Shown one piece after another: positions 8,383 to 29,284 of a stretch of 64,000 nucleotides of DNA. Source of the stretch: Candidatus Shapirobacteria bacterium (GTDB lineage Bacteria; Patescibacteriota; Microgenomatia; UBA12405); assembly GCA_030698565.1 (NCBI GenBank), contig JAUYJS010000005.1, positions 154,497 to 218,496 on the forward strand, read 5' to 3'. The notes under the pieces were generated by a model. The model was not told the origin of the DNA, did not search any database, and saw only the letters and a list, made by a program, of their open reading frames with translations. The position numbers and the translations under genes were made by a program. Numbering within the stretch: position 1 is the first letter of the stretch; each line of letters begins with the position of its first letter.

Positions 8383-9069
8383 ATGAAAATAGACATTATT
8401 ACTCTTTTTCCACAAATGTTTGAGTCGCCATTCTCAGCAAGCATACTTAAGAGGGCGATCAATAAGGGGTTAATAAATATTGAAATGCATAACCTAAGAA
8501 ATTGGGCATTGGATAAGTATGGTTCAATAGATAATAGGCCCTTTGGCGGTGATATTGGTATGTTGATGCGTCCTGAGCCGGTGTACCAGGCATTGGAGTA
8601 TGTTAAGGGACAGAAAGGGTTTAATAATAAATCAAAAAAAATTATTTTAATGTCAGCTTCGGGTAAAAAATTTACTCAGAGTATGGCAGAAAAACTTAGT
8701 AAACTAGACAACTTAGTGGTAATTGCTGGGCATTATGAAGGGTTTGATCAAAGGATTGTAGATAATATGGTAGACGAAGAAATCTCTATTGGTGACTTTG
8801 TTTTGACCGGAGGTGAGTTGCCTGCCATGGTAATTGTAGATGCTGTTTGTAGATTAATTCCTGGAGTATTGGGAAAAGATGAATCAAATAAAAATGAAAG
8901 CTTTTCTGAAATTGAAATCGATGGTAAAAAAATAAGAGCTCCTGAATACCCCCAATACACACGCCCAAGAGAATTTATGGGACATAAGGTTCCCGATGTA
9001 TTACTTTCGGGAAATCCTAAAAAAATTAAAGAATGGCAGATTGAACAGATTAAAAAGCGATTAAAATAA
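8383..9069 (+). CDS. trmD: tRNA (guanine37-N1)-methyltransferase
   Basis: MKIDIITLFPQMF…RPFGGDIGMLM…VIAGHYEGFDQRI…. Confidence 0.9.
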   Translation: MKIDIITLFPQMFESPFSASILKRAINKGLINIEMHNLRNWALDKYGSIDNRPFGGDIGMLMRPEPVYQALEYVKGQKGFNNKSKKIILMSASGKKFTQSMAEKLSKLDNLVVIAGHYEGFDQRIVDNMVDEEISIGDFVLTGGELPAMVIVDAVCRLIPGVLGKDESNKNESFSEIEIDGKKIRAPEYPQYTRPREFMGHKVPDVLLSGNPKKIKEWQIEQIKKRLK

Positions 9070-9301
9070 CGGCCAACAAAGCAAACAAAAAATATTCGAT
9101 AATAATAGAGAGGTGCAAATCCCCTTTTTTGTAATGATGAAATAGACTCCAAAAAAAATAGGATGAAACTACCCCGTAAATTACACGGTGTCGCAATAAT
9201 TCATTGTAACGAAATTGGAAAAAAAGTATGGCGCCGACGAAAAGAATTATAAATAATATAAAATGTTCACCTGGTTTTTCTTTAATTTCTTTAATGATCA
9301 T
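9050..9301 (-). CDS. small membrane protein (hypothetical)
   Basis: 83 aa with two hydrophobic helices; first gene of the minus-strand surface-protein gene string when read 5'. Confidence 0.3.
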   Translation of the reverse strand: MIIKEIKEKPGEHFILFIILFVGAILFFQFRYNELLRHRVIYGVVSSYFFWSLFHHYKKGDLHLSIIIEYFLFALLAVILIAF

Positions 9302-9303
9302 TT

Positions 9304-10167
9304 TTAGAAAATTTTGCCTTGTTGGCTATATATTAAAAATATAAATATAATTAAAAGAAAACCTAAATGGCCAGCTGAGGAACCAGATATTCGATGCGTA
9401 CCATTTCTTAAAGTTATATAAGCATCGACTAAAAGAGCAAAGATTAAAATTAAAAACATGAGAGATCCGAGGAGTTTGCTGATAAATAACGGACTAATTG
9501 CTAATCGAGTGGATGTTTGGGCTAAAACTTGTGATTCATTACTTAAACCAAAAGGATGAGAGTTTAATTCGATTTCTTCCGTGGTATTGTTGGCAATAAT
9601 TCCGTCAACTGGAGTACCAAAATGTTGAGCCACCAATGTTGTTTTGATACCACTTATGACTCCGTCGGCCACGCCGATACCGATTTCTTTATATTTAGGG
9701 TTGACGATATTTTCTTTGTGTGTTGGCGATTGCATCCAAGCAGTCATCATGGATTCGGTATCATAATAATCTTTGGCGAGGTTTTCCCCTGCGACCGTAT
9801 ATTCATAATTTTGAGACTTAAAAAAATCCCAAGGAGTTTTGCCTTCTGGTGAAGTGTGGGCCCAATAATTATGAGTAAACATATCTTGAGTCTTATTTTT
9901 AGCGGAATTTGCTAATAAAGACCTAAAGTGTAGTGGTGGTAATCCATTTTTTTGCCTTTCTAAATTAGTTGAATAAAATACTTTAGCTGCGGTAATTTCG
10001 GATGAATAACCTAGAACACCAGGCTTAACTATAGTAAAAGATTTAATAAGTGTTTGATTGAAAAGATAGAAAATAATCAAAAAACTTAAAAAATGCGGAC
10101 GCAAGATACTGGCGCGATGGCTATTTCTTTCCTGGGGTACAAATAAACTTGATAGCAAGTGCTTCAC
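9304..10167 (-). CDS. CAP/SCP/PR-1 domain protein, membrane anchored
   Basis: HNYWAHTSPEGKTPWDF…YTVAGENLAKDY…MQSPTHKENIVNPKYKEIGIGV is a CAP-domain signature; N- and C-terminal hydrophobic segments. Confidence 0.6.
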   Translation of the reverse strand: MKHLLSSLFVPQERNSHRASILRPHFLSFLIIFYLFNQTLIKSFTIVKPGVLGYSSEITAAKVFYSTNLERQKNGLPPLHFRSLLANSAKNKTQDMFTHNYWAHTSPEGKTPWDFFKSQNYEYTVAGENLAKDYYDTESMMTAWMQSPTHKENIVNPKYKEIGIGVADGVISGIKTTLVAQHFGTPVDGIIANNTTEEIELNSHPFGLSNESQVLAQTSTRLAISPLFISKLLGSLMFLILIFALLVDAYITLRNGTHRISGSSAGHLGFLLIIFIFLIYSQQGKIF

Positions 10168-10181
10168 AAATTTAGTATAGA

Positions 10182-10772
10182 TTAATTAAATACCTTTGCC
10201 AAGATAAAATAAATTAAAATTACTGCACCAACACCAAAAACTATTTTTAGAGAAAAGAAATGTTTTATTCGATCAAATAGATTTGGGGAAGAGGTAGTAC
10301 CTAGTACCTCAGCACAATCAAACTTATAATTTAAGTCAAAATTAGTGGTTAAGTTTTGAAAATCGTTCCCAGTGTTTGAATTTAAACTAGCCGACCAGTC
10401 AATGGTTTCAGATTCATTAGGTTTGATGGTATTTAATGTAATATTTTTCTGAGTCAATATGTCACTCAATCGACCAGAAAATAAAATATTACTGGTTGAT
10501 AATATTTTCATCTCGATTGATTTGGATAATTTGTCGTTCCATCTTTTTCCTTTCACGATTTCTAAATTTAATTTGCATTGACTTGATTGAAGATTAATTA
10601 TCTTTAAATGACTAGTAACCTTAAATCCTGGATAAATATTATCTTGAGAAAATAAGGGTAGATTTGAAGGACTCGAACACTCACCTTCTGATTGGCAAAT
10701 TATATTTATATCGTTAGCATAAGCAAACGGAGTAAAAAGTAAAAATATAAATATAAAGATAATTAATTTCAT
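10182..10772 (-). CDS. secreted protein with C-terminal TM anchor (hypothetical)
   Basis: Signal peptide MKLIIFIFIFLLFTPFAYA, Ser/Asn-rich body, C-terminal helix plus short tail. Confidence 0.35.
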   Translation of the reverse strand: MKLIIFIFIFLLFTPFAYANDINIICQSEGECSSPSNLPLFSQDNIYPGFKVTSHLKIINLQSSQCKLNLEIVKGKRWNDKLSKSIEMKILSTSNILFSGRLSDILTQKNITLNTIKPNESETIDWSASLNSNTGNDFQNLTTNFDLNYKFDCAEVLGTTSSPNLFDRIKHFFSLKIVFGVGAVILIYFILAKVFN

Positions 10773-13159
10773 AAATTAAAAATTTTACTGAGAACTTGGG
10801 TACTGCCAATGTCTAAAATCTGAGTTAAATTAACAACGGCGGTTTGACCTATGTCTAAGTCGGGGGTACAAGTTCCTCCCGTCGAACATGTGCCTAAAAA
10901 CAACTCTCTGTCTGTTTTGGAATTTTCGATACTTTGCTTTTTAATTTCACCATAAATTCCTTTTTCTAACCCGAGGCTTGAATAAATAATTTCATAAGTT
11001 AAGTGATCAACATTTGCCGGAATATTGGAAACCGTAAAAGTAATTTTTTTTGAAGACGAGTTGTAGTTGAGCTGAGTGTCGATCGAATTTTTGGTATAAC
11101 TCCAAGTACCAACTCCGTCGGGAGTTCTTTGCCAATCAGAATTGTCGTTATTATCAACATAAGTAGTCGAATCAATAATATTATTTTCTTTTATTAACGA
11201 AATTGTGTCATGATCAGAATCAAAGAGAAAATCAAATTCGGATAGACTAAATAAATAAGCACTGGTTGGACCAACATTAATATTGGTTAAGGTTTGTGTT
11301 TGGCCAGATATATTTTTTATAAAATAGTCGTCAAGAAAAAAATCATTAGAGGTATTGTTGAATAGTTCTATCCCTGGTGAATTAAAAAATATATGGTTTA
11401 AAACAACTTCCGGTTGAACTATTATTTCAATTTGATTATTTTTCTCTTCATTGCCAGCCAAATCGGTAGAGTTAAAATTTAACAGGTTATCCCCAATTAT
11501 TAAATCTGGAATGATGGATGTATCAAATACTCCACTACCTAAATCTTGGGCAATTAGTTGGATGGTAGAAGTTTCTCCAATACGTAAATCAGTGGTCGAT
11601 ATTTTTATATCATCTATGTCGGTCCAAGCGTATCCAGAAGAACCGACATTGTTAACTCCAAAAAATAATTTTAATGGTTGGTCGTAATAGTAATTTGATA
11701 GTGGTTTACTAATGGAGCACCAACCTGAGTCGACTGGGTCACTAAAACTTCGGCCAAAATTAATTATATTTTCTAATAACTGATCATTTTGACCTAAAAT
11801 TTGAACATTAAAATTACTAAAATCATAAGTGTCGCTATTAAAAGATCTAAATGAGAAAGAGACTGTGGGGCGAAGGTTTTGGGGTAAGGAAAAGATTTGA
11901 TAGATTCCGTCTTGGACAGGTTGATCGGTGGTTGGTTCTTTAAAACCCAAAGAAAACATTTCTGAGCCAGTAGTGGGTAAAACCGTTTCTCCTACCCCTG
12001 AATCTGATGAAATTACATGGTGGTCTCCGACTGAACTTGATATGTTCCAACCCAATAACCCTGATTCAAAACTACCATTTTCTAATAAATTTTGACCGGA
12101 CCAGTTCTTAATTGAAAAAGAGGTAGAGTCGATAAAGGTAGTAGGTGGTTTGGTGTCTATTTGAACTAAATATTTTTTTCCTTCAGAGTCAATATCCGTT
12201 TCGTGTCTACCGTCTAGGGTGTGGGCAACTGTATAAAAAGTATATAAACCGTCTTCGTCGGCATTAAAATTAAAACTACCACTTTTATTTCTAAAATCTA
12301 GATTGTCTGGACAAATAAAATTTGAATCCAGATTTATAGAATAACAAAGTTGAACATAGTCCAAATTTGCCACAGAATTTAATGTGTAACCGATATTGAG
12401 ATTGTTTGTATTTACAACCGAATCTTCATTAGTAATTGAAGAAAAAACAGAAACCCAAAAACCAGTTGAAAAAGAGTTGTTTTCTATTGATGAGGTATTA
12501 GAAAAAAATGATTCGGTGTTCGGTATTTGACCAAAAGTAAATGATAAAAAAGGTATAAATATAATTAAAAGATTCAAACTACTTTTCTTGGGTTTATTTT
12601 TTTTCTTTATTTTGTATTTTTTAATTACCTCTTCTTCAATTGCTTTTTTTAATTGAAATAATTGGTTGATAAAAACATAAATTGTAGGTAATAAAATCAA
12701 AAACATAAATCCTTTTGGGGTACGCACCCAGAGAGATAAATAACCCAAAAAAGGAAAGTCAAAAATTACCTTGCCCTTAATTTGTTCGATTTTAATTGGC
12801 TCTAAATCTGGGGAACTGTTGGCGTCGCCTTTGGTTCTGAAAACCATATTTGATTCGTTTTTATCGACACTAATTACTCGATGGGTAATTAGTAGGTCTG
12901 GTTGGGTAATTGAGCTAAAAGTAACAACATCTCCCTCTTGTGTATTTTCTGTTTTATCGGCCGAAACAAATATTAATGATCCAGTTTTTATGGTTGGTTC
13001 CATAGAACCAGACATGACACGAAAAATGTAAAACTTCTTTGTGGGAGTGAAAGTAGTTAATATTATTATTAACAATGCCGATATTAAAACTAAATTTAAA
13101 ATAAAGTTAATGGTTCGTAAACTTATTTGAACAAAGTGCCTAAAAATTTTTATTATCAC
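10769..13159 (-). CDS. SipW/archaeal-type signal peptidase I (S26B) fused to ~600-aa extracellular Ser/Thr/Asn-rich domain
   Basis: N-terminal TM, then catalytic Ser box FRVMSGSMEPTIKTGSLIFV, His box ITHRVISV and FRTKGDAN. A second TM (FMFLILLPTIYVF) and lysine-rich linker follow, then a long β-rich domain. Start overlaps the upstream gene stop by 4 nt. Confidence 0.6.
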   Translation of the reverse strand: MIIKIFRHFVQISLRTINFILNLVLISALLIIILTTFTPTKKFYIFRVMSGSMEPTIKTGSLIFVSADKTENTQEGDVVTFSSITQPDLLITHRVISVDKNESNMVFRTKGDANSSPDLEPIKIEQIKGKVIFDFPFLGYLSLWVRTPKGFMFLILLPTIYVFINQLFQLKKAIEEEVIKKYKIKKKNKPKKSSLNLLIIFIPFLSFTFGQIPNTESFFSNTSSIENNSFSTGFWVSVFSSITNEDSVVNTNNLNIGYTLNSVANLDYVQLCYSINLDSNFICPDNLDFRNKSGSFNFNADEDGLYTFYTVAHTLDGRHETDIDSEGKKYLVQIDTKPPTTFIDSTSFSIKNWSGQNLLENGSFESGLLGWNISSSVGDHHVISSDSGVGETVLPTTGSEMFSLGFKEPTTDQPVQDGIYQIFSLPQNLRPTVSFSFRSFNSDTYDFSNFNVQILGQNDQLLENIINFGRSFSDPVDSGWCSISKPLSNYYYDQPLKLFFGVNNVGSSGYAWTDIDDIKISTTDLRIGETSTIQLIAQDLGSGVFDTSIIPDLIIGDNLLNFNSTDLAGNEEKNNQIEIIVQPEVVLNHIFFNSPGIELFNNTSNDFFLDDYFIKNISGQTQTLTNINVGPTSAYLFSLSEFDFLFDSDHDTISLIKENNIIDSTTYVDNNDNSDWQRTPDGVGTWSYTKNSIDTQLNYNSSSKKITFTVSNIPANVDHLTYEIIYSSLGLEKGIYGEIKKQSIENSKTDRELFLGTCSTGGTCTPDLDIGQTAVVNLTQILDIGSTQVLSKIFNL

Positions 13160-13167
13160 GAATGTTA

Positions 13168-13737
13168 TTAAAACGTCATTGTTGGGTCGCCGTCTAGCTG
13201 AACACCAGCCCCTGATTGGACTGTGTGAAATATTAAATTTGAACTGTCGATTTTTCCTTGAAGATCATTGTTGACTGATGATTTTAGAAGAGCGTCAATT
13301 CGATAATTTTTAGTTGTTCCTGGGTCAACTTGAGCCATGAGTTCCGACCAATTTGTTAGGAAAAACTTATAATCCTGCCAATCTATTATTGTTTCGTTCG
13401 AATCCTTATCGAAAACTGATAGCTCTAAATAGCTTTCGTCTAATTCTGAATTATAAAATGGACTATTTATTAAAAATTGATTAGATATTCCAAAATATAA
13501 ATCGGCATTTATAGTACCATCATATTTAATTGATATGTCTTGTGATTGTGGTTCACCGGGAAGTAGGTTTTCAAAATTTATAGGTGAAGTTAAAGATGAA
13601 TCAAGCTTGACACTCCCTGTTGTGAAAGTATTGCCGGAAATTATTTTAGTATCACTAAAATAAGCGATAACTGCCCCGGTGGTACCAATTAAAAGGAGTA
13701 TTAAAACAAGAAAACTGACAAATATTTTTTTATTCAT
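13168..13737 (-). CDS. TasA/camelysin-family secreted protein with SipW-cognate signal peptide
   Basis: MNKKIFVSFLVLILLLIGTTGAVIAYFSDTKIISGNTFTTGSVKL matches the G-T-x-A-Y-F-S-D-T…N-x-F-x-x-G signature of SipW-dependent TasA-like proteins. It sits directly upstream of the SipW-like gene. Confidence 0.6.
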   Translation of the reverse strand: MNKKIFVSFLVLILLLIGTTGAVIAYFSDTKIISGNTFTTGSVKLDSSLTSPINFENLLPGEPQSQDISIKYDGTINADLYFGISNQFLINSPFYNSELDESYLELSVFDKDSNETIIDWQDYKFFLTNWSELMAQVDPGTTKNYRIDALLKSSVNNDLQGKIDSSNLIFHTVQSGAGVQLDGDPTMTF

Positions 13738-13774
13738 AATGTAATATAAATTACATTATATATATGAAAAAAAG

Positions 13775-14131
13775 TCAATGGGTCAGTTTTATAATTTCTC
13801 GAATTATCAAGCTACCTATCAATATTCCCACTAAATCAATAAAGGTGTCGCTTATTTTACCTTCCCTTCCAGGAACAAATTGTTGATGAAATTCATCTGA
13901 GAGTGAGTAAATATAAGCAATCAAAATTGAATATTGATATTTTTTAAAGGCTGAATATAAAAAAATACCCAATATGGCATATTCAATTAAATGCAAACTC
14001 TTGAAAAATAAAAGACTTTGGACTTGGCCGTTAATAATACCCGTGGTAGAACGGGAAGAGAAATAAAATATTACAGCCATCCATAAAACTGAAGGTAAAA
14101 ATCGGATTAAATTTTTAAAATTTAATTTCAT
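13775..14131 (-). CDS. VanZ-like family membrane protein
   Basis: 118 aa; LWMAVIFYFSSRS start and four TM helices, typical of VanZ. Confidence 0.45.
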   Translation of the reverse strand: MKLNFKNLIRFLPSVLWMAVIFYFSSRSTTGIINGQVQSLLFFKSLHLIEYAILGIFLYSAFKKYQYSILIAYIYSLSDEFHQQFVPGREGKISDTFIDLVGILIGSLIIREIIKLTH

Positions 14132-14997
14132 GTGTCAGATTTTTTTAGAAATAACGGTATTAAAAGTAGAATACCACCCGAAATTATAAAAATCATTGGT
14201 AAGTAATTTGATTTCTTTTCGTTTTGATTTTTTATTATATTTACTGGGGTTGGGCTAATTTCAGAAACAACGGTCTCACCTAAAACATATTCGCTTGTTG
14301 GAGTAATCAAATCAGAACTCGAAGTTGCCTCTGGACTTGTTGGTGTTGGTGACGGTGATATTGGACTTAGGGTTGGTGTGGGTGTTTTTGTTGGTGTGAA
14401 TGTTGGTGACGGAACATTAGTTGGTTGTGGAGTATTAGTGGGAGTATTGGTGGGTGTGGGTGAAGGAGGCGGATTGGAAATATTTAAATAAACAGAATTA
14501 CTTAAAATAGCATTACCAGAACTGGTGTATTTGGCTGATTCAATTATTTTGCAAGTTATTTTGCAACTGCCATTAGCAGATGAGAACTTAACTCGAATAG
14601 TGATATTTTGACTAATGTTTCCAGAAGAATCTGTTGAAAATTTTGGCATATTTTGCCAACTGCCGTTATACCCATTAAGCCAATTAGAATCATTTTGTAC
14701 CTCGACGGAATAATTATCACTACCAACTCCTCCGTAACATTTAAAATAATAGTCGGTATCGTTTTTCCCATGAGAAAAAATAAAATTTAATAAAAAAGAC
14801 TGCTCCTTAAATTCATCGCTCGAGTTTAAGCTTACTACCAAGGAAACAGCTGTGCTGCCAATTGTCGGCGTTGGAGCGATTGTAATTGTGGGTGTATTTG
14901 TAGAAGTTGGAGTCAATGTTGGAATATCAGTCACAGTTTGACCAAATATTGGAACAGGAAATATTATTCGTAATAAATATAACAATAAAACAAACAC
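14128..14997 (-). CDS. Pro/Thr-rich cell-surface protein with C-terminal membrane anchor
   Basis: Signal peptide, a PT-repeat block (TPTSTNTPTITIAPTPT), Cys-containing globular core, a second PT linker (PSPTPTNTPTNTPQPTNVPSPTFTPTKTPTPT), then a TM helix and KKSDT tail. Confidence 0.4.
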   Translation of the reverse strand: MFVLLLYLLRIIFPVPIFGQTVTDIPTLTPTSTNTPTITIAPTPTIGSTAVSLVVSLNSSDEFKEQSFLLNFIFSHGKNDTDYYFKCYGGVGSDNYSVEVQNDSNWLNGYNGSWQNMPKFSTDSSGNISQNITIRVKFSSANGSCKITCKIIESAKYTSSGNAILSNSVYLNISNPPPSPTPTNTPTNTPQPTNVPSPTFTPTKTPTPTLSPISPSPTPTSPEATSSSDLITPTSEYVLGETVVSEISPTPVNIIKNQNEKKSNYLPMIFIISGGILLLIPLFLKKSDT

Positions 14998-15000
14998 AAA

Positions 15001-16443
15001 CTAGTTTAGCAAATCGATGGCGAGATTTATTTTTCTCAATGTGGCCTCTTTGCCAATGATCGGTAGACAGTCAACGACTGGTGGGGTCGAAACTGAACCG
15101 CAAATTGCCACTCTAAAAACCATAAAGAATTGCCCAGTGTTCCAGTTATTTGATTTAATTTGGTCTAACAAATTAGTTTGTAGAGTTAAAAAGTCAAAAG
15201 TTTTTAAGTTTAAAATTAATTCTTTTGTTTTATTTAACATATCATGGGCTAATTCGGGAGTAATATTTTTTTGAAGCAATAAGGTTTTATCGTAGCTTAC
15301 ATCTTCAAATAAAAATTTAGTTAAATTGGCAGCGTCCTTGAGAGTCGTGATTCTTTCCTTTATTAGGGGAATAATTTGCATTAAAATTTCAAAACTGACT
15401 TCCGGAATAAATGGCTTAAGAAGTTCGACGAGTTCACTGTCTGTTTTTTGACGAATGTAGACACCATTTATATAATCTAACTTTTTACGATCAAAAGCAG
15501 GGGCCTTTTTATTTAATTTTTCAATACTAAATTGTTTGACAAAATCGCTTAAGGTAAATATTTCTTGTTCAGTTCCCGGATTCCAACCCAAAAGCATGAG
15601 AAAATTTAAAACAGCTTCGGGTAAATAGCCGTTTTCCAGAAAAATTCGGGCGTGTACGGATCCGTGCCTTTTACTCATCTTGCCTTTGTGGTCTGGGTCA
15701 AGTAATACAGTAAGATGGGCTGTTTTTGGCATGTCCCAACCGAAATATTTGTACAAAAGTACGTGTTTTGGGGTTGATGAAAGCCATTCTTCAGCCCTTA
15801 AAACATGGGTAATATTCATTAACTGATCGTCAACCACAACAGCGAAATGATAAGTTGGGATGCCATTTGATTTAATTAAAACTTGATCATCAATGTCGTT
15901 GGTATTGAATTTTATTTTTCCCCGAATCAAATCTTCAAAAACAACTGTTTCATTTTTGGGAATTACCATCCGAATAGTGTATGAAACTTTAGAGTCTAGA
16001 TTTTTTTGAATTTCTTCTTTGGATAAATGTAGACAGTGCTGGTCGTATTTGGGTAATTTTTTTTGAGATCTTTGCTCTTCACGCAAATTATTCAGACGCT
16101 CTTGGGTACAAAAACAATAATAAGCTAGACCTTTGTTTAATAATATTTGGATGTATTTTTTATAAATATCTAGGCGTTCTGTTTGAATATAAGGACCGTA
16201 GGATCCGCCAATATCGGGGCCTTCGTCCCAAGATAGATTGTAATCTTTGATTACCTGCATGATTCTTTCCTGTGATCCTGGGATAAAACGCTTTTGGTCG
16301 GTGTCTTCAATCCTTAAAATAAATTGACCTTTATATTTTCTGGCTAAGGCATAGTCATAAAGTAGGGTTCTAAGGCCACCAATGTGAAGTTCTCCCGTAG
16401 GGCTAGGAGCTATTCGCGTACGCACAAGAGTTGGATTATCCAT
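15001..16443 (-). CDS. gltX: glutamyl-tRNA synthetase
   Basis: RIAPSPTGELHIGGLRT (HIGH) … KMSKRHG (KMSKS). Confidence 0.9.
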   Translation of the reverse strand: MDNPTLVRTRIAPSPTGELHIGGLRTLLYDYALARKYKGQFILRIEDTDQKRFIPGSQERIMQVIKDYNLSWDEGPDIGGSYGPYIQTERLDIYKKYIQILLNKGLAYYCFCTQERLNNLREEQRSQKKLPKYDQHCLHLSKEEIQKNLDSKVSYTIRMVIPKNETVVFEDLIRGKIKFNTNDIDDQVLIKSNGIPTYHFAVVVDDQLMNITHVLRAEEWLSSTPKHVLLYKYFGWDMPKTAHLTVLLDPDHKGKMSKRHGSVHARIFLENGYLPEAVLNFLMLLGWNPGTEQEIFTLSDFVKQFSIEKLNKKAPAFDRKKLDYINGVYIRQKTDSELVELLKPFIPEVSFEILMQIIPLIKERITTLKDAANLTKFLFEDVSYDKTLLLQKNITPELAHDMLNKTKELILNLKTFDFLTLQTNLLDQIKSNNWNTGQFFMVFRVAICGSVSTPPVVDCLPIIGKEATLRKINLAIDLLN

Positions 16444-16506
16444 GGCTTATTTTAGCATCATAAAAATTAAAATTTATTATGTTTGTTTTTTTATGTAAAA
16501 TAAGGT

Positions 16507-17550
16507 ATGTCTTCATTAACCCATACGGCCTACATGAGTAGAAAAATAATTAGTTTTGGTAGTGTGGGCTTAGTTGCTTTTCTAGTTCTTTGGTCAGTCT
16601 TAACAAGTGCAATAAAATCATATAATACTGCCTATCCTGCCGTTATACCACCAACTGTAAGATATGGCAGGTTACCTAAAATTGTTTTTCCAGAAAAGCA
16701 ATTTAATAAAAAGACTTTTAGTCTAGAACTACCCAACGATACTTTTCCTAAAATTAGTGAACAGGCAAAAGTATATGTGATTTACCGGCCAGATAGTCTA
16801 TTTTCTGCATTAGAAGATGATTCAAAAACTGCCGCTCAACTCGCTTTTAATAGTAAACCAATAGAAATGAGGGTTGGTTTGTATCAATTCCAAAACCCTG
16901 AATCTAGTAATACATTGATTATGAATGTTTTTGATGGCAGTTTCAAATTAGAGTACCCTTATTTAAACGATCAACTGCTTTTGACTCCAGAAAGGGTTCC
17001 AGATAAAAATGAAGCTATAGATATCGCTTCCGATTTTTTAGGATCAGGAGACAAACTTACAGATGATTTGGCTAATGGTGAAAAAAATGTAAGTTATTGG
17101 AAAATAGAAATGGGCGCTTTGAAACAAGCCAATTCCCAATCGGAGGCTCATATTGCTCGGGTGGATTTTTTCAGAAAAAATATTGATGATAACCTAAAAA
17201 TAGTAACTAATGAGCCCGAAAAAGCGGCAATATCGATATTGGTTAGTGGTTCTAGTGTTAGCGACAAAAGAATCGTTGAGGTTAATTATAAATATGCCAA
17301 CATCGACCGTGAGTCTTTTTCAACATATCCAATTAAATCTACAGAGTCTGCCTGGAAAGAGCTGCAAAGTGGTAATTATTGGCCAGTTTCTGACACTGAA
17401 ACTAGTTCTGTAGTAATACGAAGAATTTACTTGGCATATTTTGAACCAGTGACCTTAACAAATTACATGCAACCAGTCTTTGTGTTTGAAGGTGATAATA
17501 ATTTTATTGCCTATGTTCCGGCTGTGACTGATGATTATACTCAAAAATAA
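16507..17550 (+). CDS. membrane-anchored hypothetical protein
   Basis: N-terminal TM then a 300-aa soluble domain; no motif recognised. Confidence 0.35.
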   Translation: MSSLTHTAYMSRKIISFGSVGLVAFLVLWSVLTSAIKSYNTAYPAVIPPTVRYGRLPKIVFPEKQFNKKTFSLELPNDTFPKISEQAKVYVIYRPDSLFSALEDDSKTAAQLAFNSKPIEMRVGLYQFQNPESSNTLIMNVFDGSFKLEYPYLNDQLLLTPERVPDKNEAIDIASDFLGSGDKLTDDLANGEKNVSYWKIEMGALKQANSQSEAHIARVDFFRKNIDDNLKIVTNEPEKAAISILVSGSSVSDKRIVEVNYKYANIDRESFSTYPIKSTESAWKELQSGNYWPVSDTETSSVVIRRIYLAYFEPVTLTNYMQPVFVFEGDNNFIAYVPAVTDDYTQK

Positions 17551-28992: not shown

Positions 28993-29018
28993 ATATTGTA
29001 AAATACAATTAACTCAAA

Positions 29019-29284
29019 GAAATCGAAGGATCTAACTCCGATTTATCGGGGAGGAAAGTCCGGACCGCAAAAAGCACAGAATTCTGCAGAGCAGAACAAG
29101 ATGTAAGTTTTGGGCAATGCTACAGTGACGAATAGTCCCGATACCTAAAAGGGTCGGGGTGAAGTGAAACGAGCATCCTTCTGGCGGAAATCTCAAGTAG
29201 GGGCGTTTGTATCTAGCTTTTGAGAGCCTCAGGTAGAGAGAATAGATTGATGGTCCTTAAACAGAATCCGGCTTATCGATTTCT
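29019..29284 (+). ncRNA. rnpB: RNase P RNA (bacterial type, reduced)
   Basis: GGAGGAAAGUCCGGAC (CR-I/P4 5' strand), GGGGUGAAGUGAAACG (CR-IV-like), ACAGAAUCCGGCUUAUCG (CR-V/P4 3' strand). P1 closes as aaaucga…ucgauuu. Confidence 0.75.

Follow-up and report, generated by a model that had tools for sequence, protein, structure and literature searches.

A locus at positions 9050-14997 of the minus strand, in a 64,000-nucleotide stretch of DNA from a Candidatus Shapirobacteria bacterium, a member of the Patescibacteria or candidate phyla radiation (CPR), very probably makes a TasA-type surface fibre with a dedicated signal peptidase. The stretch, part of contig JAUYJS010000005.1, is called the window, and all coordinates are positions in it. 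On balance, we favour a fuller explanation, in which a TasA-superfamily fibre is assembled without chaperone or usher from the products of this locus, among them a peptidase translationally fused to a substrate. Seven open reading frames (ORFs), all on the minus strand and read in the same direction, are closely packed across the locus. Those on which the argument turns are as follows.

13168-13737, minus strand: TasA-like protein of 189 residues, the candidate major subunit (PF12389, TIGR04088)
10769-13159, minus strand: SipW fusion ORF of 796 residues (TIGR02228)
12650-13159, minus strand: SipW-type signal peptidase I core, residues 1-170 of the 796-residue ORF
12509-12649, minus strand: fusion junction, residues 171-217 of the 796-residue ORF
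10769-12508, minus strand: ectodomain, a candidate for release, residues 218-796 of the 796-residue ORF
10182-10772, minus strand: anchor candidate with a TasA fold, 196 residues (hhalign, hydropathy)

The 189-residue protein is a TasA-superfamily subunit, as shown by its fold, its SipW-type signal peptide and its protomer-interface residues. Hidden Markov model (HMM) searches placed it above the cut-offs of both PF12389 (Peptidase_M73/TasA; 28.6 bits, cut-off 22.5; residues 15-77 only) and TIGR04088, the model of the SipW-cognate signal peptide (24.2 bits, cut-off 19; residues 10-43). Both matches had been anticipated in an earlier reading of the locus made from the sequence alone (the sequence-only reading), and the signal motif quoted there, GTTGAVIAYFSDT…NTFTTG, was found in the protein exactly as given. 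The SipW-type signal peptide occupies residues 1-25 (nucleotides 13663-13737), with a predicted cut at VIA/YFSD, and the mature N-terminus, YFSDTKIISGNTFTTG, is a putative donor strand. The equivalog model for Bacillus TasA, NF046066, scored only 13.8 bits against a cut-off of 450, so the protein is a member of the superfamily and not an orthologue of TasA. When an HMM of the TasA-like N-terminus was run against the 275 six-frame ORFs of the window, it matched only this protein (70.9 bits) and a site inside the 796-residue ORF (12.4 bits, E 0.0017); the next-best ORF reached 4.2 bits. Profile searches recovered 85 relatives of the protein, mostly 170-230 residues long.

An AlphaFold2 model of the 189-residue protein, made from an alignment of 37 sequences, had a predicted local distance difference test score (pLDDT) of 84.5 and a jelly-roll or beta-sandwich fold like that of TasA. 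Its top PDB match in Foldseek was the cryo-EM structure of the TasA fibre (8aur_A, E 2e-6), in agreement with the fold that had been expected from the sequence. Behind TasA came chaperone-usher pilins, the Pyrobaculum bundling pilin and cannulae, and the ABP pilin, CanX and the thread subunit were the next-best structural matches. In TasA, F29, P62 and Q232 are part of the “proline box”, the most conserved piece of the protomer interface (Roske et al., PMC10151520). The profile alignment to 8aur placed F27, P60 and Q174 of the 189-residue protein at these three positions, and they are kept in 36, 37 and 37, respectively, of the 37 CPR family members. Residues 20-57 of the monomer model are nearly all non-regular (one bridge residue, 45), with block-mean pLDDT values of 52-74 for residues 21-40 and 86-90 for residues 41-60. 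This segment is compatible with a donor strand but is no proof of one.

The neighbouring 796-residue ORF begins with a signal peptidase of the archaeal or endoplasmic reticulum type. Residues 20-164 matched TIGR02228, the model of this type of signal peptidase I (SPase I), with 114.2 bits (cut-off 51.85). The Bacillus SipW equivalog, NF046067, gave 114.6 bits against a cut-off of 190, and since the Bacillus TasA and SipW equivalog models both stayed below their cut-offs, the proteins of the locus are best described as family members rather than orthologues. Hydropathy placed two transmembrane (TM) helices in the peptidase core, TM1 at residues 19-37 and TM2 at residues 150-168. The core contains the motifs SGSMEP (S50/S52), THR (H93) and GDAN..D (D112/D118), which are at least 90% conserved among 40 homologues; by comparison with SipW and Sec11, these residues are taken to be catalytic. 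The peptidase part of the structural model matched human SEC11C (7p2q_A, 28% identity). To judge from its motifs, the signal peptidase is apparently active. The public gene call for an identical protein (P0001, 768 residues) begins 28 codons later, a difference that corresponds to 13076-13159 of the window and cuts into TM1; the N-termini of the homologues favour the longer GTG start at 13159.

Three hydrophobic segments were found in the 796-residue ORF by hydropathy, and the third is preceded by a Lys-rich loop, KKAIEEEVIKKYKIKKKNKPKKSS. In sequence, the loop resembles the n-region of a signal peptide and TM3 (residues 194-212) the h-region. TM3 is followed by PNTES, with small residues at -3 and -1 and a predicted cut at S217/F218. 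The arrangement PNTES/FFSNTSSIENNSFSTG (nucleotides 12461-12508) parallels VIA/YFSDTKIISGNTFTTG of the 189-residue protein, and the putative donor peptide on the ectodomain side is FFSNTSSIENNSFSTGFWVS. The consensus of the homologues past TM3, PTNA/YFSDxxVxxGNTFS, is a near-perfect SipW-cognate motif, and the HMM of the TasA-like N-terminus matched the junction (residues 217-233 here) in about 45 of 74 homologues, with up to 25.8 bits. Among 40 fused homologues, position -1 was Ala in 33, Ser in 5 and Thr in 2; position -3 was Thr in 26, Ala in 9, Ser in 1 and Ile or Val in the other 4; and P2' was Phe in 37. An uncut site would not need this pattern.

Homologous loci were drawn from a GTDB-wide scan that started from one peptide pattern and returned 335 SipW relatives, of which the best 80 loci were surveyed. 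Separate-gene orthologues of the ectodomain were found in L022 (6591-8171), L011 (6426-8390) and L079 (6531-9011). There, a stand-alone sipW gene encoding 193-205 residues abuts or overlaps the start of the substrate gene. The latter begins with a Met of its own and encodes a basic n-region, a hydrophobic core and the motif, as in MKKHLIKLSILFFILSLYKIGNTSA/YFTNTQTVTG. The product of the split gene is clearly orthologous to the ectodomain of the window, as seen from DHVQLCYAFNLARPLICP vs DYVQLCYSINLDSNFICP and FYLGTCSTGGICTPE vs LFLGTCSTGGTCTPD. Of 86 SipW ORFs surveyed, 24 were fused (at least 350 residues) and 61 stand-alone. Because fused forms with 30-89% identity occur in independent samples, the fusion is no assembly error. 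The third membrane helix, the SipW-type cleavage and donor motif and the relatives encoded by separate genes together identify the 796-residue ORF as a peptidase–substrate fusion. The sequence-only reading had described a SipW-type peptidase with a giant ectodomain; the fusion ORF is real, but for these same three reasons the peptidase is probably not the carrier of the ectodomain. Cleavage of the fusion is, in our judgement, likely, and the ectodomain is probably released from the peptidase.

The fused layout was also seen outside the CPR, in P0049, P0055 (Williamsia), P0056, P0064 (Rhodococcus), P0045 and P0048. These proteins have a SipW core, a third membrane helix, an A/A[YF]xD-type motif (for example GSAA/AYIDSASATTGSFAS) and a large ectodomain, and they are annotated only as “signal peptidase I”. 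A Patescibacteria metagenome-assembled genome (L022, 3451-10471) has two tandem modules with two sipW genes, in the order TasA-like, SipW, TasA-like, TasA-like, SipW, large substrate, anchor, CAP.

The full-length model of the 796-residue protein had a pLDDT of 81.4, with residues 240-796 forming a confident string of beta modules. These are an Ig-like module (about residues 240-345), a jelly roll resembling a carbohydrate-binding module (CBM; about residues 350-525, nucleotides 11585-12112), a small beta module, an LTD (residues 583-668, nucleotides 11156-11413) and a C-terminal beta-sandwich bearing LGTCSTGGTCTPD. The LTD match is below the cut-off here and was recorded for homologues, whose ectodomains also have OmpL47-type barrel and choice-of-anchor-J domains. 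In Foldseek, the ectodomain matched carbohydrate-binding modules (2c26, 1wky), the sugar-binding domain of Fbs1, fn3 arrays and large adhesins. No C-terminal membrane segment was found in it by hydropathy. When residues 213-350 were aligned with the TasA-like family by hhalign, the match (90% probability, E 1.6e-6) covered 20 columns, comprising the cleavage site and the N-terminal strand, and no later domain of the ectodomain matched that family. The ectodomain thus has a SipW-type signal and the shared N-terminal strand, followed by a complete non-TasA fold, as TapA does. No TapA or YqxM model was among the NCBIfam matches at E<=0.1, and the ectodomain may work like TapA while sitting outside the TapA family. 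It is a candidate for a TapA-like initiator or tip-adhesin subunit.

Other identities of the ectodomain were considered. A TasA fold was ruled out, as hhalign found only the 20-column N-terminal motif, and so was a DUF5305-type accessory domain, there being no DUF5305 match in Pfam. An internal LPTTG lies near residue 395 of the 796-residue protein, inside the CBM-like domain. It is not followed by a hydrophobic segment and is probably a chance match. A regular-expression scan of the window ORFs for LPxT[GAS] gave this match and one other, in a short plus-strand ORF that is probably no gene. Sortase-type anchoring was rejected, as neither a TLxTC sortase motif nor a C-terminal LPXTG sorting signal was present in the ORFs of the 64-kb window.

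The 196-residue protein encoded next is a membrane-anchored protein with a TasA-fold domain and without the donor motif, as shown by profile comparison and hydropathy. It had no Pfam or NCBIfam match. However, hhalign against the TasA-like family gave 97.4% probability (E 1.5e-11) over 115 columns, with its invariant P48 aligned to P60 of the 189-residue protein. The protein has an ordinary signal peptide (residues 1-19, AYA/ND), a TasA-like beta-sandwich (about residues 37-155), four invariant Cys (26, 32, 66, 153) and a C-terminal membrane helix (residues 177-195). A phmmer search recovered 526 relatives (cluster representatives) at E<=1e-3, in which the conserved N-terminal domain, residues 1-155, is often followed by fn3 or LTD domains. 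The signal peptide of the family is of the ordinary AXA type, A-G/N-D-L-T-I-T-C; the HMM of the TasA-like N-terminus found no SipW-type donor motif in 150 members, and at least 92 of these have a C-terminal hydrophobic segment, usually followed by basic residues. The description of this protein as another anchored secreted protein was correct as far as it went, and is amended here in that the protein itself has the TasA fold. We propose that it is the base or terminator subunit of the fibre.

The survey showed that the gene order TasA-like, SipW, large substrate, anchor recurs over the Patescibacteria, in about 80 loci. The best 80 loci from the scan that gave the 335 relatives belong almost entirely to this group, in lineages of the Microgenomates, Parcubacteria and Saccharibacteria. 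In 68 of 75 loci, HMM annotation placed a TasA-like gene that has a SipW-type signal peptide no more than 3 kb upstream of SipW, and the anchor family was present within 5 kb downstream in 44 of 66, directly behind SipW or its substrate. Six homologue loci share a core of one or two TasA-like genes, the SipW fusion, an anchor-family gene, a CAP gene and a small membrane protein, and the core order is kept in L006 and L007 despite flanks unlike those of the window. The genes are therefore conserved together in many Patescibacteria, as a single apparatus would be expected to be. Contigs titled “uncultured Gammaproteobacteria”, “Candidatus Methanoperedens”, “Clostridia” or “Bdellovibrionales” also showed synteny and gene content of the CPR type (L008, L010, L011, L016, L023, L032 and others) and are probably mislabelled or contaminated bins.

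The donor-strand mechanism of TasA is established, and TapA, which has an N-terminal strand in common with TasA and otherwise a complete fold, initiates the filaments (PMC10151520). A comparable pathway can be proposed for the present locus. The peptidase would cut the 189-residue precursor after VIA25, exposing YFSD…, and this donor strand would insert into the next subunit as in TasA. That the peptidase cleaves the neighbouring TasA-like precursors is suggested by the adjacency of the genes in 68 of 75 loci and by its fusion to a motif-bearing substrate. A second cut by the peptidase, in cis or in trans, would fall after S217 in its fusion partner and free an adhesin-like subunit that, like TapA, has a donor strand and lacks the acceptor fold. 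Such an adhesin could donate but not accept, so it would cap only the acceptor-open end of the polymer. The 196-residue protein could accept but not donate, so it would cap the other end and hold the fibre on the membrane. Consequently, the sole arrangement that uses all three would be membrane – anchor – (189-residue subunit)n – adhesin, with the adhesin at the distal tip, where its CBM-like and LTD domains suggest attachment to a surface or host cell. We regard this three-part architecture of anchor, subunit polymer and adhesin as evenly balanced between right and wrong.

A more ambitious version, which we consider unlikely, takes the SipW–adhesin fusion as a self-priming initiation device of a peptidase-driven pilus pathway that works tip-first, needs no chaperone, usher or sortase, and ends in an anchor. 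Each peptidase would be made covalently joined to one tip adhesin and would cut it in cis. The freed donor strand would capture a major subunit still tethered to the membrane by its signal peptide, and further cleavages would add subunits at the base until the anchored TasA-fold protein took the last strand.

The possibility was considered that the fusion stays uncut and that TM3 tethers the ectodomain, which would then serve as a platform for assembly, as a module that recruits substrates or as an adhesin, with the TasA-like strand next to the membrane nucleating fibres at the enzyme. The single ORF is conserved in many lineages, as this would lead one to expect, and the junction in the window is degenerate (TES/FFSN, 12.4 bits), with no TIGR04088 score. 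Moreover, AlphaFold2 showed no confident docking of the junction in the active site, with pLDDT below 50 for residues 182-230. Fusions of SPase I to a DUF5305 accessory module have been described and interpreted as permanent subunits (bioRxiv 10.64898/2026.01.04.697558), and TapA of B. subtilis is reported to colocalise with the membrane (PMC10151520). However, all 40 fused proteins follow the small-residue rule for -3 and -1 and all but three have Phe at P2', and a permanent tether needs neither. Furthermore, where the genes are split, the ectodomain is made as a normal secreted protein whose signal peptide looks cleavable. A permanent tether is accordingly held to be improbable. A different objection is that the TasA-like proteins are no fibre subunits at all but monomeric secreted or envelope proteins, or a camelysin-type protease, and that the SipW-type enzyme is a general signal peptidase lying beside abundant substrates. 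The Pfam name Peptidase_M73 points in this direction, as does the commonness of SipW-type peptidases in Patescibacteria, where one peptide pattern sufficed to find the 335 relatives. On the other hand, the 189-residue protein has one His, no HExxH and no Cys, which rules out a camelysin-type metalloprotease; its conservation is highest at the residues of the TasA protomer interface; and its closest structures are all donor-strand filaments. The anchor and Pro/Thr-rich proteins have ordinary AXA-type signal peptides, which suggests a second class of signal peptide alongside the SipW-type one. A non-fibre role is thus very unlikely.

Having set these alternatives aside, we retain the assembled fibre as the preferred explanation, with several points to be entered against it in addition to the weak junction and its poorly modelled docking. 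Polymerisation, cleavage and subunit order are inferred from sequences, monomer models and synteny. The SipW-type enzyme might still be the general signal peptidase of this organism. No anchor-family gene lies within 5 kb in 22 of the 66 loci, and the groove of the anchor itself could be locked or occupied by its four invariant Cys together with the N-terminal strand of the protein (NDINIIC), which would block the entry of a donor strand. In addition, the genome is tightly packed throughout, with the end of GltX only 3 nt upstream of the locus and the convergent TrmD gene overlapping its far end, and gene overlaps alone therefore say little about function. How much of the locus belongs to the fibre is a separate question, on which the remaining four genes bear.

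14128-14997, minus strand: Pro/Thr-rich surface protein of 289 residues, with a signal-like segment at the N-terminus, a beta domain in the middle and a membrane helix at the C-terminus (hydropathy)
13775-14131, minus strand: VanZ-like membrane protein of 118 residues (PF04892)
9304-10167, minus strand: CAP/YkwD-domain membrane protein of 287 residues (PF00188)
9050-9301, minus strand: small membrane protein of 83 residues with two hydrophobic segments (hydropathy, jackhmmer)

We lean towards the view that only three or four genes form the functional unit, namely the TasA-like gene, the SipW–substrate fusion, the anchor and possibly the CAP and 83-residue genes, the Pro/Thr-rich, VanZ and possibly CAP genes being neighbours by gltX–trmD synteny. 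In L001, L003 and L005, synteny extends over the entire gltX…trmD neighbourhood. The VanZ–Pro/Thr-rich pair recurs in Microgenomates-type loci, in three of which (L004, L005, L006) unrelated genes part it from the TasA and SipW genes, and neither had a match in the surveyed loci of Parcubacteria or Saccharibacteria type. A CAP gene was present in 18 of the 59 loci whose downstream flank measured 5 kb or more, those with CAP downstream including L001, L003-L008, L010-L012, L022, L024, L059, L079, L080 and others. However, the CAP and 83-residue genes stay with the module in L006, L007 and L010, where the other flanks differ, and the Pro/Thr-rich protein has a domain in common with anchor-family proteins of relatives. 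VanZ and the Pro/Thr-rich gene are lineage-specific neighbours, VanZ probably lying outside the core of the fibre module, whereas CAP and the 83-residue gene are frequent companions without being universal. The sequence-only reading had taken the whole gene set as a possible single apparatus; co-conservation speaks for this in the case of the TasA-like, SipW and anchor genes, but not for VanZ and the Pro/Thr-rich gene, and for CAP only in the fraction of loci given above.

The CAP assignment of the 287-residue protein was clear (PF00188, 62.7 bits, cut-off 21.1, E 7.5e-17), with an additional match to TIGR02909 (E 3e-31) that stayed below the cut-off. In the protein, an extracytoplasmic CAP domain is preceded by a conserved segment at the N-terminus and followed by two hydrophobic segments at the C-terminus. 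The N-terminal segment, LF[IV]PQ-x-x-N-x-[HY]-[RQ]-A-x-[IL]L-x-P-x-FL, is strongly conserved even in distant relatives, with orthologues in L011, L022 and L079, and this sequence conservation suggests a specific interaction. Orthologues of the 83-residue protein were found by jackhmmer in 20 loci, each directly after CAP, and the one in L006 had a weak DUF5656 match. The VanZ match of the 118-residue protein was equally clear (PF04892, 64.4 bits, cut-off 30.1, E 2e-17). The Pro/Thr-rich protein had no Pfam match. Its central domain (residues 67-128, YYFKCYGGVGS…) is 42% identical (E 2e-10) to residues 179-238 of an anchor-family protein in L022 (8174-9595). In L001, L006 and L022, the gene in the same position carries an LTD; an LTD identity was not supported for the Pro/Thr-rich protein of the window, which has no LTD match but does match the anchor-family protein. 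It seems that these surface proteins have had domains shuffled between them.

Taken over the whole locus, the VanZ, TasA-like, signal peptidase and CAP assignments of the sequence-only reading were borne out by Pfam and NCBIfam HMMs, and the membrane anchoring that it gave to the Pro/Thr-rich and 196-residue proteins agrees with their N-terminal hydrophobic and C-terminal membrane segments. It had counted six co-directional genes linked by 4-nt overlaps. The strand and the overlaps (14128-14131 and 10769-10772) were confirmed, the other gaps being 37, 8, 14 and 2 nt, but the count was one short, as the 83-residue ORF at 9050-9301 had not been listed. A scan of 8900-16700 for promoters and terminators gave no excess over shuffled controls (37 vs 31.5±5.6 and 4 vs 4.7±2.6, respectively). 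The GC content is about 31-39% and uniform over the window. Elsewhere in the window, an RNase P RNA at 29018-29284 (plus strand) was matched best in Rfam by the archaeal model RF00373 (130 bits, E 2.8e-36) and not by a bacterial one, while nearby genes (TrmD, GltX and an ORF resembling D-Ala-D-Ala carboxypeptidase) look bacterial by sequence.

Patescibacteria make up a large share of bacterial diversity and are thought to live attached to other cells. To our knowledge, the type IV pilus is the only appendage so far tied to attachment in the CPR. The present locus is a second candidate appendage across the group, with a candidate tip adhesin that has sugar-binding-like modules and a candidate membrane anchor whose family, with its 526 cluster representatives, is not covered by Pfam. 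If the self-priming scheme were true, Microgenomates-type CPR cells could possess in this fibre an organelle for host attachment that is separate from type IV pili. The fusion is a natural “Rosetta stone” that ties a SipW-type enzyme to its class of substrate, and its occurrence in cultivable Rhodococcus and Williamsia opens cleavage and fibre assembly to direct test there. A perspective on the Patescibacteria mentions type IV pili and adhesins, and no signal peptidase or TasA-like system (PMC11665869). In the searchable literature on SipW, TasA or camelysin in CPR, Saccharibacteria and Actinobacteria, which is incomplete, only a one-line distribution remark on PF12389 homologues in Patescibacteria was found (PMC9245690). 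No published account was found of a peptidase joined in one protein to a substrate whose cleavage site is retained, of this membrane-anchor family with the TasA fold, or of the conserved Patescibacterial cluster.

The closest known arrangement is tapA-sipW-tasA of Bacillus subtilis, where a dedicated signal peptidase of the endoplasmic reticulum or archaeal type likewise adjoins its substrates. As in TasA, the 189-residue subunit combines the TasA fold with a SipW-type signal peptide, aromatic residues at P1' and P2' and the F, P and Q residues of the proline box. As in TapA, the second substrate has only the N-terminal strand in common with the major subunit and otherwise consists of complete non-TasA beta domains (PMC10151520). 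The order of the genes differs, however, being major subunit, peptidase, accessory, anchor. The accessory substrate is fused to the peptidase and is far larger (about 580 residues), with CBM-like and LTD modules. The locus also encodes a TasA-fold protein that has a membrane helix at its C-terminus, for which the Bacillus operon has no counterpart.

Archaeal and bacterial loci for filaments of the TasA superfamily (ABP with AbpA/AbpB, AbpX and Tafi) have the same general layout, combining one or more fibre subunits with an SPase I dedicated to them, a component predicted to be the tip or adhesin, and a membrane anchor (bioRxiv 10.64898/2026.01.04.697558; PMC9245690; PMC12518558). The present locus differs from them in that the anchor is a TasA-fold protein with a C-terminal helix rather than an SLH or LPXTG protein, the peptidase has a small two-helix core rather than ten helices, and the peptidase is fused to a substrate with a retained cleavage site rather than to a DUF5305 accessory module. 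The host, moreover, is a Patescibacterium, a group that the papers on those loci mention only in a distribution remark. By analogy, the proposed logic of a tip adhesin, a major-subunit polymer joined by donor strands and a terminal subunit that fixes it to the cell also recalls the type 1 and P pili of the chaperone-usher pathway, whose pilins were among the structural matches of the 189-residue protein, and the pili assembled by sortases in Gram-positive bacteria. The 64-kb window yielded no chaperone, usher or sortase, and assembly would here be driven by removal of the signal peptide, unlike in those pili, so that the likeness is one of analogy and not of membership. Filaments of the TasA superfamily that come with their own peptidase, tip and anchor are already on record from Bacillus, from further bacteria and from archaea, and the locus described here extends and refines this known kind rather than adding a new one.

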